Below are positions 2,849-63,979 of a stretch of 64,000 nucleotides of DNA, in pieces. Both the position numbers and the translations under genes were made by a program. The notes under the pieces are model-generated. The model ran no database searches, had not been told where the DNA came from, and worked only from the letters and a program-made list of their open reading frames with translations. The DNA comes from a virus (taxonomy: Duplodnaviria > Heunggongvirae > Uroviricota > Caudoviricetes): the IMG/VR virus record IMGVR_UViG_3300033463_000003, one strand, 5' to 3'. The first letter of the stretch is position 1, and every line of letters begins with the position of its first letter.

Positions 2849-3661
2849 ATGATAAGCAGTTTATACGAACCATTTAAAAAGTGGAGTGAAAACGGCTCAA
2901 TATATATTATTTCAGACCCACATTTTGGTGATGAAGAAATGAAACACCTACGTAAAGATTATATAGGTGACGATGAACAAGTAAATAGAATTAATAAAAA
3001 AGTTCATAAAAATGATACCATTATAATTCTTGGCGATATAGGTAATATTGAGTACGTTAAAAAGATAAATGGTTATAAAGTTTTAATTTTAGGAAATCAT
3101 GATAAAGGCAAATCTTATTATCAAAGAAAGATTGAACAAGTAAGAGTATTTTGTAGTCATGGAATTACTAAAGAAGAACATCAAATTATAGACTTATATA
3201 CTTCAAATCAATTAACAGGTATTAAAGATGTTGAGATTGAAAAGAAGGCAAAAGAAATCTATGATAAGTATTCTAAACTTGAAACTAGGGATAATCATTT
3301 ATTTGATGAAGTTTATGATGGTAGCTTATTAATAGCAAGTAATATTCTTTTATCACATGAGCCAGTTGACTATCCATTTGCATTAAATTTACACGGACAC
3401 GACCATTCTGGTGTAGAGTTTGTAAATAATGTTTTACAAAAATATGATGCCGATATGTCAATTGAAGATATTGTGCCAAGCTATATTGCTACTATTAAAG
3501 AAAATAAGTTAATGCATATGAATTTATGTACTGAATGGCTTAATTATACACCACTTAATTTAAAAGATTTAATTAAGTCTGGCATCTTAAAACATATACC
3601 AGATATGCATAAAACTTGTATTGAAAAAGCAACCAAAAGAAAACAAAAGCGCAGTGAGTAA
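2849..3661 (+). CDS. Calcineurin-like metallophosphoesterase
   Basis: SDPHFG, LGD, GNHD, SHEP, HGHDH motifs. Confidence 0.85.
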   Translation: MISSLYEPFKKWSENGSIYIISDPHFGDEEMKHLRKDYIGDDEQVNRINKKVHKNDTIIILGDIGNIEYVKKINGYKVLILGNHDKGKSYYQRKIEQVRVFCSHGITKEEHQIIDLYTSNQLTGIKDVEIEKKAKEIYDKYSKLETRDNHLFDEVYDGSLLIASNILLSHEPVDYPFALNLHGHDHSGVEFVNNVLQKYDADMSIEDIVPSYIATIKENKLMHMNLCTEWLNYTPLNLKDLIKSGILKHIPDMHKTCIEKATKRKQKRSE

Positions 3662-3703
3662 ACTGCGTTTTTTATTGCTAAATTAAATAAGTAGGTGAAG
3701 TAA

Positions 3704-3913
3704 ATGGGAAAGAAAATAAAAGAGTTTTTTATTTGTAATTGTGAAAGAATAATGGAAATTTGCTCTTTCTTATTTTTTATTTTCTTAGTTGCTGGTTTTT
3801 GTTGCTGTATTTTTGGAGCTCCAAATATATGGCCAATTATTTGTTTTAGTAGTTCAGTAGCTTCATTTATTTTACTTATGGTAAATGTAGTAATTTTCAC
3901 AAGAATAGATTAG
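3704..3913 (+). CDS. Small two-TM membrane protein
   Basis: Two hydrophobic stretches; RBS and GCTAAATT upstream. Confidence 0.55.
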   Translation: MGKKIKEFFICNCERIMEICSFLFFIFLVAGFCCCIFGAPNIWPIICFSSSVASFILLMVNVVIFTRID

Positions 3914-3980
3914 TACATTTTTAATAGCTTAAAATGAAAGGATTAAACAGTTTTGTTTAATTTTTTATTTGGAGTGTGCT

Positions 3981-4214
3981 ATGGAAAATTTTTATACTTA
4001 TGCTAATTATGAGGATGCTTATTGTCACCAAAGATGAGCTGATTGTAAGAAAATTGGGCTATATCTTTTACTTAAAATTAATGATAAATGGGCTAAAACT
4101 TTATATAAGAGGCTAAGCAAATTTACATGGGATTGGCAGGATTCAGACGAAAAGAAAAAAGAGGATGCCAAACTTTTATTAGATGTAAAAATTTGAATAA
4201 TGATAAATGAATAA
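3981..4214 (+). CDS. Hypothetical 77-aa protein (code 4; TGA at 4035 and 4194)
   Basis: GGAG RBS; frame open only with TGA=Trp; ends TAA. Confidence 0.6.
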
Positions 4215-31984: not shown

Positions 31985-32036
31985 TTGCTAAATTAAATAG
32001 ATGCTCAGGGGTGATTTGGCTTTTAAATCTGCCTCA

Positions 32037-32091
32037 GAAACTATACTTATTTCTACAGATAAACTTTGAAAATTTAGCCGCTAGTTAGTTC
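32037..32091 (+). ncRNA. Conserved carrier element copy F (no tRNA cargo)
   Basis: GAAACTATACTTATTTCTA...CTAGTTAGTTC; AACTA/TAGTT is a compensatory variant of the family stem; nested in ATGCTC/GAGCAT stem after a GCTAAATT motif. Confidence 0.65.
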
Positions 32092-32186
32092 GAGCATTTA
32101 AGATAAAATATCAACGATATTTAACTTAAAAGATACTGTAAATGATACCCAAAAATACTTCCTTACAAGATTCTATTATTAAGTTA

Positions 32187-55031: not shown

Positions 55032-55097
55032 TAAGTTTATATTAATTTAAAAAATATAAGCTAAATTAAATGAGTTTGAGTAAATCAAACTTACATA

Positions 55098-55166
55098 GTG
55101 AAAAGCACACCCGTAGAAATGCGGGGTCGCAAAACTATAGGGTCTTATTAAAGATAGCCAGTTGCC
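55098..55166 (+). promoter_or_regulatory. GEMM-I (c-di-GMP-I family) riboswitch aptamer, A20 variant
   Basis: G-CACAC-CCGTA-GAAA-TGCGG-GGTCGC-AAAACTATAGGGTCT...AGATAGCCAGTTGCC fits P2 (GAAA tetraloop), P3 and junction pattern. Confidence 0.85.
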
Positions 55167-55252
55167 TCAATCAAAGTATTTTGGTTGGGGCTTTATTTTT
55201 AATAAGATAGCCAGCTGCCTCAATCGTTCTATACGGTTGGGCATTTTATTTT
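55164..55252 (+). terminator. Two tandem intrinsic terminators, each preceded by a copy of the aptamer 3' end
   Basis: GCCTCAATC..GGTTGGGGC-TTTATTTTT, then GATAGCCAGCTGCCTCAATC..GGTTGGGC-ATTTTATTTT. Confidence 0.75.
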
Positions 55253-60476: not shown

Positions 60477-60548
60477 GCAATTCTTAAAAAAGAATGTGCT
60501 AAATTAAAAGTAAGCAAGTTAGCAAGGCTTACAACAGCTAATTTGCAT

Positions 60549-60605
60549 GAGCCTATACTTATTTCTATTTTTAAAGAGATCATGAAGAAAAAGGTTAGTT
60601 AGGCC
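60549..60605 (+). ncRNA. Conserved carrier element copy A (short cargo)
   Basis: GAGCCTATACTTATTTCT...GTTAGTTAGGCC. Confidence 0.7.
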
Positions 60606-60636
60606 AATAATTTTAAGAAGAAGGAGTTAAAAGAGT

Positions 60637-60866: not shown

Positions 60867-60941
60867 GGGCCGATAGTTTAATTGGGAAAACACCCGCCCT
60901 GCAAGCGGGAGTTACGGGTTCAATTCCCGCCGTGTCCACCA
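60867..60941 (+). tRNA. tRNA-Ala(TGC), imperfect acceptor stem
   Basis: CCCGC-CC-TGC-AA-GCGGG, CCA. Confidence 0.75.
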
Positions 60942-61184: not shown

Positions 61185-61189
61185 TTATA

Positions 61190-61307
61190 GAACCTGTGCT
61201 TATTTCTAATAGGGCAAGCAGGTTGTCGCTGGTTCGAATCCAGCCTTCCCAACCATTATCGGGAAGTAGCTCAGTTGGCAGAGCACCCGCAAAATATTAG
61301 CCAGGTC
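61190..61307 (+). ncRNA. Carrier element copy B enclosing a circularly permuted tRNA (anticodon degenerate, possibly GGC)
   Basis: 3' half (T-arm, CTTCCCA-ACCA, ending 61255) precedes 5' half (CGGGAAG, D-arm, CCCGC; 61260-61290); closing stem ACCTG/CAGGT. Confidence 0.8.
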
Positions 61308-61312
61308 AAATT

Positions 61313-61388: not shown

Positions 61389-61559
61389 TTAAATTCATAG
61401 AAGGAGAAAAAGATTATGATGAATTTAACCAAAAAGATTAAAAATATAAGAAAAACCAAAAGAATTGGTTTCTTTCATCATGGCTTAATTAGTTAGTAAA
61501 AAACTTAAATTAATAGTTTATGCTGGGTAGTTAAGTCTGCTCAGCATTTTTATTAAATT

Positions 61560-61636: not shown

Positions 61637-61639
61637 TTA

Positions 61640-61697
61640 GAGCCTATACTTATTTCTAGCTTCAAGCAAACAACTTTTAATTGTTCATAGTTAGGCC
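61640..61697 (+). ncRNA. Carrier element copy C (two mini-hairpins as cargo)
   Basis: GAGCCTATACTTATTTCTA...ATAGTTAGGCC, spaced between two tRNAs. Confidence 0.7.
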
Positions 61698-61701
61698 ATA
61701 T

Positions 61702-62047: not shown

Positions 62048-62050
62048 TCA

Positions 62051-62158
62051 GAGCCCATGCTTATTTCTTTCGGCTTCTAACCGGGTGGTCGTTGGTTCGA
62101 ATCCAACCGTTCCAGTTGGAACGTAGCTCAGTGGGAGAGCACCTTATTTAGCTGGGCC
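62051..62158 (+). ncRNA. Carrier element copy D enclosing circularly permuted tRNA-Arg(TCT)
   Basis: 62071-62115 = positions 29-73; 62117-62143 = positions 1-28; rejoined CC|CGG-CT-TCT-AA-CCGGG; acceptor TGGAACG/CGTTCCA perfect; no CCA; closing stem GCCCA/TGGGC. Confidence 0.88.
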
Positions 62159-62211
62159 AAAACTAAAAAACTATATTATTTTAAGATTTTTCAATGTATA
62201 ATATAGTGCAT

Positions 62212-62286: not shown

Positions 62287-62524
62287 ATAATAAAAAATAT
62301 ATGCTAAATTAAAATGCGAGGAGAGAACAAAATGATGATTAGAAGAAGTTATCAATTGAGCCAATTATCAGGTTTATGTGGTCATAACCAATTTTTGTTT
62401 TACTCCAATCGCGATTAAATAGAATAAGCTTAAAGTATAATATATAATTTAATGAGCAGCGATTGGAAAAATTGTTGCTCATTTTATTTACAAAGCAAAA
62501 ATTCTATGGTATAATATTAAATAC

Positions 62525-62767: not shown

Positions 62768-62770
62768 TAA

Positions 62771-62891
62771 GAGCCTATGCTTATTTCTTAAGGACTGAAA
62801 ATCCGCGTGTAGGTGGTTCAACTCCATCCCTTCCCGCCAAATATTTGGGAAGTGTAGCTCACCGGTAGAGCAGCGAACTATTAGCTAGGCC
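62771..62891 (+). ncRNA. Carrier element copy E enclosing circularly permuted tRNA-Phe(GAA)
   Basis: 62792-62839 = positions 29 to CCA; 62847-62874 = positions 1-28; rejoined GC|GGA-CT-GAA-AA-TCCGC; closing stem GCCTA/TAGGC. Confidence 0.85.
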
Positions 62892-63191
62892 AAAAAATAA
62901 AAAATTTCAGAAATATATTTACAATTAATTAAAAATGTTGTATAATATATGTGAGCGTTAAAAATATACGCTAAATTATAATGGCGCAAAGCTAGGAAGG
63001 AAAAGATTATGCAAAAACTATCTATCATGTCCCTTAATCGTGAACATAGTGATTCAGTATATTTCGGTTGCTGGAATATTTTTGCTACCATCGGATCATC
63101 TAGTTTTGAGCAGGTTAATGAATAAATAAATTAAAAACATTAACAAAAAATGAAATTAGGTGGTCTGAATAAGATCACCTTTTATTTTACT

Positions 63192-63282: not shown

Positions 63283-63358
63283 GTGGACGTGAATCTGACG
63301 GTTTAGATGCTAGTCTGTGAAACTAGATTACTGAGTTCAACTCTCAGACATCCACCCA
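63283..63358 (+). tRNA. tRNA-His(GTG)
   Basis: CTAGT-CT-GTG-AA-ACTAG; G-1:C73; CCA. Confidence 0.85.
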
Positions 63359-63362
63359 AAAT

Positions 63363-63452
63363 GGTCTATTAGCTCAGTCTGGTAGAGCGGCCGACCAAAG
63401 TGTCGGTGACAAACAGCGCGCGAGTGCATTGGTTCAAATCCAATATAGACCA
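63363..63452 (+). tRNA. Atypical tRNA-like RNA (6-nt anticodon loop, 20-nt extra region, no CCA)
   Basis: Perfect acceptor GGTCTAT/ATAGACC, D- and T-arms; GCCGAC-CAAAGT-GTCGGT arm plus GCGC-GCGA-GTGC hairpin. Confidence 0.6.
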
Positions 63453-63460
63453 TCGTATAT

Positions 63461-63902: not shown

Positions 63903-63979
63903 TGCGGGGAAGTGTAACGGTTTGCATCTGAGGCTCATAACCTCAGGGTAGTGAGGTTCAACTCCCACCCCCGCGACCA
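63903..63979 (+). tRNA. tRNA-Met(CAT)
   Basis: TGAGG-CT-CAT-AA-CCTCA, CCA. Confidence 0.85.

Follow-up and report, generated by a model that had tools for sequence, protein, structure and literature searches.

We analysed a 64,000-nucleotide (nt) stretch of DNA from a tailed phage (IMG/VR record IMGVR_UViG_3300033463_000003, Caudoviricetes; hereafter the window) that contains, at 62771-62891 on the + strand, a hairpin-like element, the Phe element, in which the two halves of a tRNA-Phe(GAA) lie in swapped order on a bulged stem. The Phe element belongs to a family of phage RNAs that share a conserved and covarying stem, which we call the carrier, and its permuted tRNA-Phe body is itself structurally conserved. 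With slightly better than even confidence, we read it as a non-decoding mimic of tRNA-Phe within this carrier-stem family that is probably opened by RNase P into two pieces. Below, we describe the element, its homologues and the carrier family, and then weigh this reading against four alternatives.

A permuted tRNA-Phe body on a carrier stem

Direct reading of the + strand shows that the interval 62771-62891 runs exactly from one base of the closing G-C pair of the hairpin-like element to the other. Its parts are as follows.

62770-62788, + strand: 5' strand of the carrier, consisting of AGA (62770-62772, second A bulged), GCCTA (62773-62777), a bulged T (62778) and GCT (62779-62781), followed by the invariant loop TATTTCT (62782-62788).
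62792-62804, + strand: anticodon hairpin, with a 3-base-pair (bp) stem GGA/TCC (tRNA positions 29-31/39-41) and the loop CTGAAAA, in which the anticodon GAA occupies 62797-62799.
62805-62839, + strand: remainder of the 3' half, consisting of GC (62805-62806, positions 42-43), the 5-nt variable loop GTGTA, the T arm (62812-62828), the acceptor 3' strand CCTTCCC (62829-62835), G73 (62836) and CCA (62837-62839).
62840-62846, + strand: 7-nt linker AATATTT that closes the acceptor stem, with a predicted RNase P site at U62846/G62847.
62847-62874, + strand: 5' half, consisting of the acceptor 5' strand GGGAAGT(G), the D arm GCTC-ACCGGTA-GAGC (62857-62871), A26, and GC (62873-62874, positions 27-28).
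62875-62891, + strand: 3' strand of the carrier, consisting of the spacer GAACTATT and then AGC-TAGGC-C (62883-62891), which pairs with the 5' strand.

A TAA spacer separates the TATTTCT of the carrier 5' strand from the anticodon hairpin. The segment 62792-62839 corresponds to positions 29-76 of tRNA-Phe(GAA) and the segment 62847-62874 to positions 1-28, so that the halves are swapped. When 62847-62874 is rejoined to 62792-62839, the resulting 76-nt sequence is called tRNA-Phe(gaa) by ARAGORN, and its unconstrained minimum free energy (MFE) structure is a clean cloverleaf of -25.8 kcal/mol. The body is slightly non-canonical in that an 8-bp acceptor stem with one U.C mismatch is combined with a 4-bp T stem, for a total of 12 bp, and the rejoined sequence reads C15/A48 and G73. 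The initial annotation of this locus had described a permuted tRNA-Phe(GAA) with an internal CCA and a 7-nt linker, and this layout is borne out both by the direct reading and by the ARAGORN call. Its placement of the carrier stem on the anticodon stem is also correct; the break lies at 28/29, and a break at 29/30 is equally readable because G62875 could stand in for G62792.

In its native order the interval 62771-62891 has no match to RF00005 and receives no ARAGORN call; as it stands, tRNA models do not recognise it as a canonical collinear tRNA. The plain MFE fold of the native element differs from the tRNA-like model (-32.4 kcal/mol for the MFE fold versus -27.8 kcal/mol for the model), and its z-score is only -1.09. 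As thermodynamics alone neither supports nor excludes the model of the Phe element, support for the structure comes from covariation.

Homologues preserve the layout and the breakpoint

A metagenome scan identified four homologues of the Phe element (L205, L220, L206 and L225). Scans of IMG/VR for carriers with a Phe cargo returned only chance matches among the matches listed for a loose pattern, and one chance match for a strict pattern. All five sequences, the window copy and its four homologues, share the same layout and the break before GGA (28/29). The anticodon hairpin, AGGACTGAAAATCC, is invariant in all five, and each has CCA after the discriminator and a U before G+1; the linker varies in length and sequence. 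The initial annotation had named breakpoints scattered among homologues as an observation that would count against it, and the common 28/29 break in all four homologues instead points to a defined geometry.

Both stems of the carrier (stem 1 and stem 2), the T and acceptor stems and pair 28:42 all show compensatory changes among the Phe homologues. L205 and L220 have the unusual 8+4 acceptor/T geometry of the window copy, and differ from it in the carrier (GCCAA/TTGGC versus GCCTA/TAGGC), in one acceptor pair (A-U to C-G) and in the linker, which is TTATAT. L206 and L225 have a fully canonical tRNA-Phe body with a 7-bp acceptor stem (GGGAGAG/CTCTCCC), A73, G15:C48 and G27:C43, and contain G28:C42 where the window has C28:G42. 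Their T stem, CCTAG/CTAGG, differs from that of the window in three of five pairs, two of which are changed on both sides. The acceptor loop of L206 and L225 also contains a nested carrier, whose inner cargo resembles tRNA-Ile(UAU) and is still called a tRNA by ARAGORN with C33 in place of U33. Judging from these comparisons, the structure of the Phe element is under selection.

The carrier is a multi-copy, covarying stem

The carrier consensus is 5' AGA-N5-U-RCU-UAUUUCU, then the cargo, then 3' AGY-N5'-C, where N5 and N5' are complementary; the pairing runs from a G-C pair through a bulged A, five covarying base pairs, a bulged U and three further base pairs to the invariant UAUUUCU strand. 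Within the window, the 18-mer at 62771 is found again at 60549, 61190, 61640 and 62051, and more weakly at 32037. The carrier 5' box has six matches in the window, as compared to 0.16 expected, and each copy has a 3' partner.

To survey the family, IMG/VR was scanned with an exact pattern and the resulting loci were searched with a regular expression that requires pairing. This yielded 64 candidate carrier copies, or ~62 once two chance matches (L060 and L070) are removed, among which at least 16 different N5 sequences occur, always together with the complement. In a test that does not require pairing, a complementary 3' box is located at most 330 nt away for 71 of 74 distinct 5' boxes, whereas random stems lead to an expectation of 2.45. 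An alignment of 34 short members shows changes on both sides of six of the nine carrier pairs; in this alignment the stems covary, whereas UAUUUCU and the bulges are invariant. The 11-nt strand URCUUAUUUCU is unchanged across diverged phages.

A covariance model, R1, was trained on short-cargo carriers only; the three short copies of the window were part of the training set, and the Phe element, its sister with an Arg-like body and the element at 61188 were not. R1 recovers these three long-cargo elements at E-values of 5e-7 to 8e-6, and matches the Phe element over its full length (62769-62895, 43.1 bits, E 5e-7). At E < 0.1 it finds nothing in the window beyond the carriers. The Phe element is not a chance arrangement, since it matches R1 at E 5e-7 and has four homologues with the same layout. 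The other carriers of the window are listed below.

62049-62162, + strand: sister element with a permuted tRNA-Arg(UCU)-like body (the Arg element), broken at 28/29, with a tetraloop-closed acceptor and no CCA; R1 score 38.1 bits.
61188-61311, + strand: sister element (the 61188 element) in which the carrier is joined to the equivalent of a 5-bp anticodon stem (no anticodon loop), followed by a T arm, a CCA-bearing acceptor loop and a D arm; R1 score 37.6 bits.
61638-61701, + strand: short-cargo sister element with a D-arm-like hairpin and a Lys(UUU) anticodon-arm-like hairpin; R1 score 67.2 bits.
60547-60609, + strand: short-cargo sister element whose cargo is not obviously tRNA-like; R1 score 55.1 bits.
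32035-32095, + strand: isolated carrier copy outside the tRNA array; R1 score 49.9 bits.

Five related phage records (147-237 kb) contain 3-11 carriers each, all located on the coding (transcribed) strand, and a control with the reversed pattern returned none. Carrier positions between the same tRNAs are conserved between the window and one related record (G002), a synteny that argues for stable inheritance. Carriers begin ~3 nt past the CCA of the upstream tRNA and are often last in the transcription unit. In some cases a whole carrier sits within the acceptor loop of a cargo borne by another carrier (L044:10962-11021, L206:4660-4775, and the same place in L225).

No Rfam family covers the carrier. 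Searches of GenBank phages gave only chance matches to a 64-nt carrier and, for the tRNA array of the window, matches through ordinary tRNAs only; no cultured phage with the carrier family was found. When GTDB genomes were scanned for the 5' box, true carriers were present in only two records among the matches listed, most of which are coding sequence (e.g. in Flavobacterium). The two records are a scaffold of Clostridium sp. CAG:288 (L237) and a 19.8-kb contig of a Bacteroidales metagenome-assembled genome with three copies (L278). Their carriers are probably on phage DNA binned with bacterial genomes, and the bins might hint at the hosts. Separately, the invariant carrier strand T(G/A)CTTATTTCT (62779-62788 in the window, and present in all carriers) matches the box TGCTAAATTAT at 8 of 11 positions, and a genuine copy of this box follows the Arg-type carrier in G002 (L082:4331-4341); the likeness may be a coincidence in AT-rich DNA.

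Carriers display modular tRNA parts

The majority of the cargoes are 30-48 nt in length and form an anticodon-arm-like hairpin with a 4-6-bp stem and a 7-nt loop. The loops of these short cargoes retain U33 and a purine at position 37 that is appropriate to the anticodon: G37 for Pro(UGG) and Leu(UAG), and A37 for Lys, Cys, Thr and Ser (examples are UUUGGGA for Pro, CUUUUAA for Lys, CUGCAAA for Cys and UUUAGGA for Leu). Some cargoes have an additional D-arm-like hairpin, and others have a T arm and a closed mini-acceptor. Permuted tRNA bodies are found in ~20 members, and two members (e.g. in the related record G001) contain non-permuted tRNAs that ARAGORN accepts.

The permuted bodies are entered from the carrier in two ways. 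In the Phe and Arg elements of the window, as well as L010, L016, L029, L001, L011 and L043, the carrier enters at 28/29 or 29/30 and the anticodon hairpin is kept as a branch. In the 61188 element and in L043, L010, L001, L024 and L044, entry is through the anticodon loop, such that a 5-bp anticodon stem runs into the carrier. The acceptor loops also fall into two types. The first is tight and lacks CCA (the Arg element, L016 with a UUCG loop, and others). The second starts with N73-CCA and is found in ~10 members, far above the chance frequency of 1 in 64; the anticodon loop is absent from some of these CCA-bearing members. When its halves are rejoined, the Arg(UCU) element at 62051-62160 is called tRNA-Arg by ARAGORN. 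It is the same as its homologue in G002 (L082:4216-4330) except for one anticodon base (UCU versus UGU) and the acceptor stem-loop, and both have closed acceptors without CCA. The Arg-type acceptor stem-loop is wholly replaced in L082, yet it is fully paired, which is the behaviour of a swappable module.

These comparisons modify two earlier claims about the break. The initial annotation regarded the Arg and Phe elements as two independent tRNAs with one breakpoint; the break is indeed shared, but the two are not independent, and because both are cargoes of one multi-copy carrier family, the common geometry is a property of the scaffold. It also proposed a specific insertion or processing geometry, which applies to the Phe homologues and does not extend to other family members, in which the break is at 29/30 or within the anticodon loop, or in which there is no permutation.

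Relationship to YrlA RNAs

At permissive thresholds, the only non-tRNA Rfam family that matches these elements is YrlA (RF02553). The YrlA model scores the Arg element at 41.7 bits over its full length, the 61188 element at 37.7 bits, and the Phe element at 22.7 bits over model positions 23-88 only. YrlA RNAs have a terminal stem with a GNCGAAN0-1G motif near the 5' end that binds Ro60/Rsr, and a tRNA-like domain in permuted order whose T and D arms are split by a closed acceptor-like stem; their gene is on the same strand as rsr and at most ~4 kb away from it (Chen et al. 2014, PMC4201824). In M. smegmatis YrlA, the acceptor stem is 7 bp in length, RNase P cuts in its loop and a CCA is present, giving two pieces (PMC4201824).

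The likeness extends to the overall design, as in both RNAs a stem formed by the ends bears a tRNA-like domain with the same permuted order: anticodon-stem 3' strand, variable region, T arm, closed acceptor, D arm and anticodon-stem 5' strand. The Phe element contains such a tRNA-like domain as judged by direct reading, by the energy of the model and by the compensatory changes among its homologues. Like the carriers, YrlA RNAs occur as several paralogues per genome, some of which lack the tRNA-like part (YrlB), and YrlA is also found in some phages. There are also differences. First, the carrier has the invariant URCUUAUUUCU strand instead of the Ro motif, and no Ro60 gene was detected nearby or in the five related phage records. 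Second, the Phe and Arg elements retain a complete anticodon hairpin as a third branch. Third, the cargo of the carrier is modular, comprising anticodon arms only, halves or whole tRNAs.

A probable non-decoding, two-piece tRNA-Phe mimic

The reading that we favour is that the Phe element does not decode. An ordinary tRNA-Phe(GAA) is also present in the window and in the L206 locus, so that decoding does not depend on the permuted copy in either place, and ordinary genes for tRNA-Phe, tRNA-Arg(UCU) and tRNA-Lys share arrays with carriers. The non-decoding reading rests on these ordinary tRNAs, on one Arg body having two anticodons, on the closed acceptors without CCA, and on the CCA-bearing members that lack an anticodon loop.

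A plausible pathway would begin at the following promoter.

62487-62515, + strand: sigma-70-like promoter TTTACA-17-TATAAT, TG-extended, with 11 of 12 matches.

The unit downstream of it consists of tRNA-Gln, tRNA-Leu, tRNA-Leu and the Phe element, and the next promoter is at 62918-62946. The Phe element would thus be co-transcribed with tRNA-Gln and the two tRNA-Leu and released by host tRNA-processing enzymes. The RNA is predicted to fold as a tRNA-like L with an intact anticodon hairpin, a carrier helix that leaves the anticodon stem, and an acceptor closed by the CCA and the 7-nt linker. RNase P would then open the acceptor loop at 62846/62847, and 3' trimming would halt at the CCA; opening by RNase P is probable in view of the standard 12-bp acceptor/T stack, the U before G+1 and the encoded CCA. 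The result would be an RNA of two pieces that pairing in the carrier and acceptor stems keeps joined, comparable to M. smegmatis YrlA (PMC4201824). The invariant loop of the carrier may bind a putative partner. More speculatively, the RNA could act as a decoy or adaptor that presents its tRNA body and anticodon loop to the anticodon nucleases of host defence, to repair enzymes or to synthetases such as PheRS. The initial annotation had likewise proposed a two-piece RNA produced by RNase P, for which M. smegmatis YrlA is a direct precedent. It also called the product chargeable, which is unproven and is not the common theme of the family, because the acceptors of the Arg element and many others are closed and free of CCA, an anticodon loop is missing from some of the members that do have a CCA, and most members carry an anticodon-arm-like hairpin only.

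A broader form of this idea is possible, although we hold it only tentatively: the carriers as a whole may constitute a phage-specific, modular class of RNA, a 'library' of tRNA parts that serve as decoys or adaptors against tRNA-targeting defences or tRNA-handling machinery, in which the Phe element would be an RNase P-opened two-piece mimic that PheRS can charge. The carrier family is abundant (3-11 copies per genome in uncultivated jumbo phages of ~220-240 kb) and clearly under structural selection, and it presents exactly the tRNA parts that are recognised by anticodon nucleases, synthetases, RNase P and repair ligases. A role as decoys or adaptors would bring RNA into the contest of phage and host for tRNAs as a further layer, and charging of the CCA-bearing members would make them a natural example of a two-piece tRNA beyond tmRNA and YrlA. 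In either case, the carrier is a small scaffold, modular by nature, on which short RNA modules are displayed.

A search for partner proteins covered TROVE, EndA, RtcB, RNA-ligase-like proteins, the CCA-adding enzyme and the neighbours of carriers. RtcB is encoded in one of the five related records, RNA-ligase-like genes are found in four of the five, and a CCA-adding enzyme is present in two of the five and in the window phage. In G001 (IMGVR_UViG_3300021400_000048, locus L233, 2357-6151), the RtcB gene (2913-4097, - strand) lies within a tRNA array with carriers on both sides. The genes beside isolated carriers are unrelated between the window and G001. RNA repair is a theme of jumbo phages (PMC7824862), and this theme and the RtcB gene of G001 are consistent with a decoy or adaptor role, which they fit but do not prove. 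As a separate observation, the position of RtcB among the carriers of G001 recalls the Salmonella operon rsr-yrlBA-rtcBA (PMC4201824).

Several results weigh against the reading of the Phe element as a non-decoding, YrlA-like mimic. None of the genes covered by the partner-protein search tracks the carrier family. The two non-permuted tRNAs on carriers that ARAGORN accepts suggest that the carrier might be a mere processing or stability device, and the canonical body of L206 and L225, together with their conserved CCA, has the look of a chargeable tRNA. With respect to YrlA, all of the model scores are below the gathering cut-off of 69 bits and are values that any permuted tRNA might reach. 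The Ro-binding motif GNCGAAN0-1G is absent from the carrier 5' strand AGA-GCCUA-U-GCU-UAUUUCU, and the carrier positions that correspond to the bases of Y RNA read by Ro60 covary freely. No TROVE domain was detected among 30 open reading frames (ORFs) scanned in the window, a set that contains every one of its 27 ORFs of at least 250 amino acids (as listed under genetic code 4), and PF05731 (TROVE) has no match in the five related phage records, four of which are at least 96% complete. The missing Ro motif, the sub-threshold scores and the lack of a TROVE gene in the ORFs and records scanned speak against membership in YrlA, and we therefore describe the Phe element as YrlA-like in build without assigning it to that family.

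Alternative explanations

We consider it unlikely that the carrier does no more than aid processing or stability, as a leader-trailer stem comparable to those that flank rRNA. On this view the cargo would be cut free to act as tRNA halves, anticodon hairpins or tRNAs, and the permuted order would reflect only the history of its capture. Its placement just after the CCA of an upstream tRNA and often at the end of a transcription unit, the ordinary-looking tRNAs held by some carriers, and the nesting of carriers in the acceptor loops of others would all be expected of such a device. However, an invariant URCUUAUUUCU strand amid covarying stems points to specific recognition beyond pairing, 17-nt hairpins, once freed, would be unstable, and the stem is probably too short and too bulged for RNase III.

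It is also doubtful, and somewhat more so, that the locus is a true permuted tRNA gene that yields a functional, aminoacylated tRNA-Phe, either as a nicked two-piece molecule whose carrier strands have been trimmed off, or by a cut at the carrier junction and ligation of positions 28 and 29, with a circular intermediate that RNase P and 3' end processing would then mature. It is less doubtful for the CCA-bearing Phe class, above all for the canonical L206 form. The ARAGORN call of the rejoined sequence is compatible with this possibility, as are the conservation of the CCA, the GAA loop and the 12-bp acceptor/T stack in the five homologous sequences, the canonical L206/L225 body with its A73, G27:C43 and G28:C42, the RtcB gene within a carrier-bearing tRNA array of one related phage and the CCA-adding enzyme encoded by the window phage. 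Circularly permuted tRNA genes are known from Cyanidioschyzon merolae, some green algae and Thermofilum pendens, and the Phe element resembles these genes in that the 3' half precedes the 5' half, the acceptor ends are joined by a short linker, and leader and trailer pair. Those tRNAs mature through a bulge-helix-bulge motif that is cut by the splicing endonuclease, ligation to a circle and end processing, and their junctions are mostly in loops. In contrast, the junction with the carrier has no 3-4-3 bulge-helix-bulge motif, and direct reading shows only single-nucleotide bulges, both on the 5' strand. The tRNA-splicing endonuclease (EndA/PF01974) has no match in the five related records, of which only one has RtcB. 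The break of the Phe element falls within the anticodon stem, its array also has a canonical tRNA-Phe copy, and the gene is phage-borne. Sister elements appear unchargeable or non-decoding, since they have closed acceptors, no anticodon loop, or one body with two anticodons, and the body in the window itself has G73, C15/A48 and a mismatched 8-bp acceptor. Judging from what is established about the structure of tRNA on the ribosome, the A and P sites would probably not accommodate a helix that branches off at 28/29 without a clash.

Very unlikely, in our view, is a Y RNA in the strict sense, whose carrier would bind host Ro60/Rsr while the tRNA-like cargo recruits an effector such as PNPase. 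The YrlA-like domain order and the partial matches to the YrlA model speak for this assignment, AUGCU occupies the same place in the Rfam consensus and in the carrier, Ro60 genes exist in gut bacteria (e.g. Bacteroides thetaiotaomicron, as seen in a search control), and RtcB stands beside carriers in one phage, which may be compared to Salmonella rsr-yrlBA-rtcBA (PMC4201824). The absence of GNCGAAN0-1G, the free covariation at Ro60-read positions, the lack of a TROVE gene in the phages and the scores below the gathering cut-off argue against it. Finally, a DNA-level relic without RNA function, i.e. a repeated hairpin that captured tRNA fragments by recombination, is highly improbable, for although tandem tRNA genes with short spacers are an obvious source of a '3' half-spacer-5' half' unit and nested copies exist, the carrier, T, acceptor and 28:42 pairs show compensatory changes, the anticodon hairpin is invariant, all copies are on the transcribed strand at positions that are syntenic between phages, and purine 37 fits the anticodon.

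Other known RNAs

The initial annotation had likened the Phe element to two-piece tmRNA (RF04321), with which it shares a permuted gene with a loop that joins the acceptor strands; in tmRNA this loop is opened to give two pieces with a chargeable CCA end, and it would be opened in a similar way here. The likeness does not extend to membership, because RF04321 has no match at the Phe locus up to E 10, ARAGORN finds no tmRNA in the window, and the Phe element lacks an mRNA-like tag frame and tmRNA pseudoknots. The tRNA cluster of phage T4 encodes small stable RNAs with no assigned role (species 1 and 2, or rnaC and rnaD), which by description alone are similar in that they are non-tRNA stable RNAs within a phage tRNA cluster and are processed with the tRNAs. 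Our literature searches turned up no bacteriophage with a permuted tRNA-like gene other than those for the Ro60-linked YrlA RNAs, and no account of the carrier.

Several further candidates were considered for these elements and rejected: a self-cleaving ribozyme (no known core motifs and no Rfam match), a K-turn (no G.A pairs in the carrier), an ENE-like triple helix with an A-rich tail (the tail is missing where a tRNA follows directly), a tmRNA-like tag frame (no conserved frame or stop), an integron attC-like or REP-like DNA hairpin (the core differs, the cargo lies inside the hairpin and all copies are on the transcribed strand), and a boxA-like antiterminator (the likeness is weak and leaves the cargo unexplained).

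Neighbouring features of the window

The window derives from a large phage with genes densely packed on one strand, including genes for DNA polymerase A, DnaB, primase, RecA, a clamp loader, thymidylate synthase, a folate-pathway pair, a CCA-adding enzyme and a ligase. The tRNA array extends from 60787 to the end of the window and comprises more than 25 tRNA genes. Within it, a 93-nt tRNA-like gene at 63362-63454 is reported by ARAGORN as 'tRNA-???' with a two-base anticodon (aa) and scores 48.4 bits against the Rfam tRNA model; its anticodon loop is odd, and it contains a long extra arm or an insertion. Three other segments (63284-63355, 60867-60938 and 63903-63976) score 40.7-41.7 bits against the Rfam tRNA model and are missed by ARAGORN, and 63284-63355 has a GUG (His) anticodon loop. 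Short ORFs of ~25-40 codons, one of them encoding a very basic product, are located between the tRNA blocks (61406-61497, 62333-62419 and 63010-63125), and are accompanied by ribosome-binding sites, late-promoter-like boxes upstream and terminators downstream (61520-61547, 62451-62483 and 63158-63180). Outside the array, a c-di-GMP-I riboswitch aptamer at 55094-55169 (59 bits, above the gathering cut-off) is positioned upstream of an ORF without a Pfam match.

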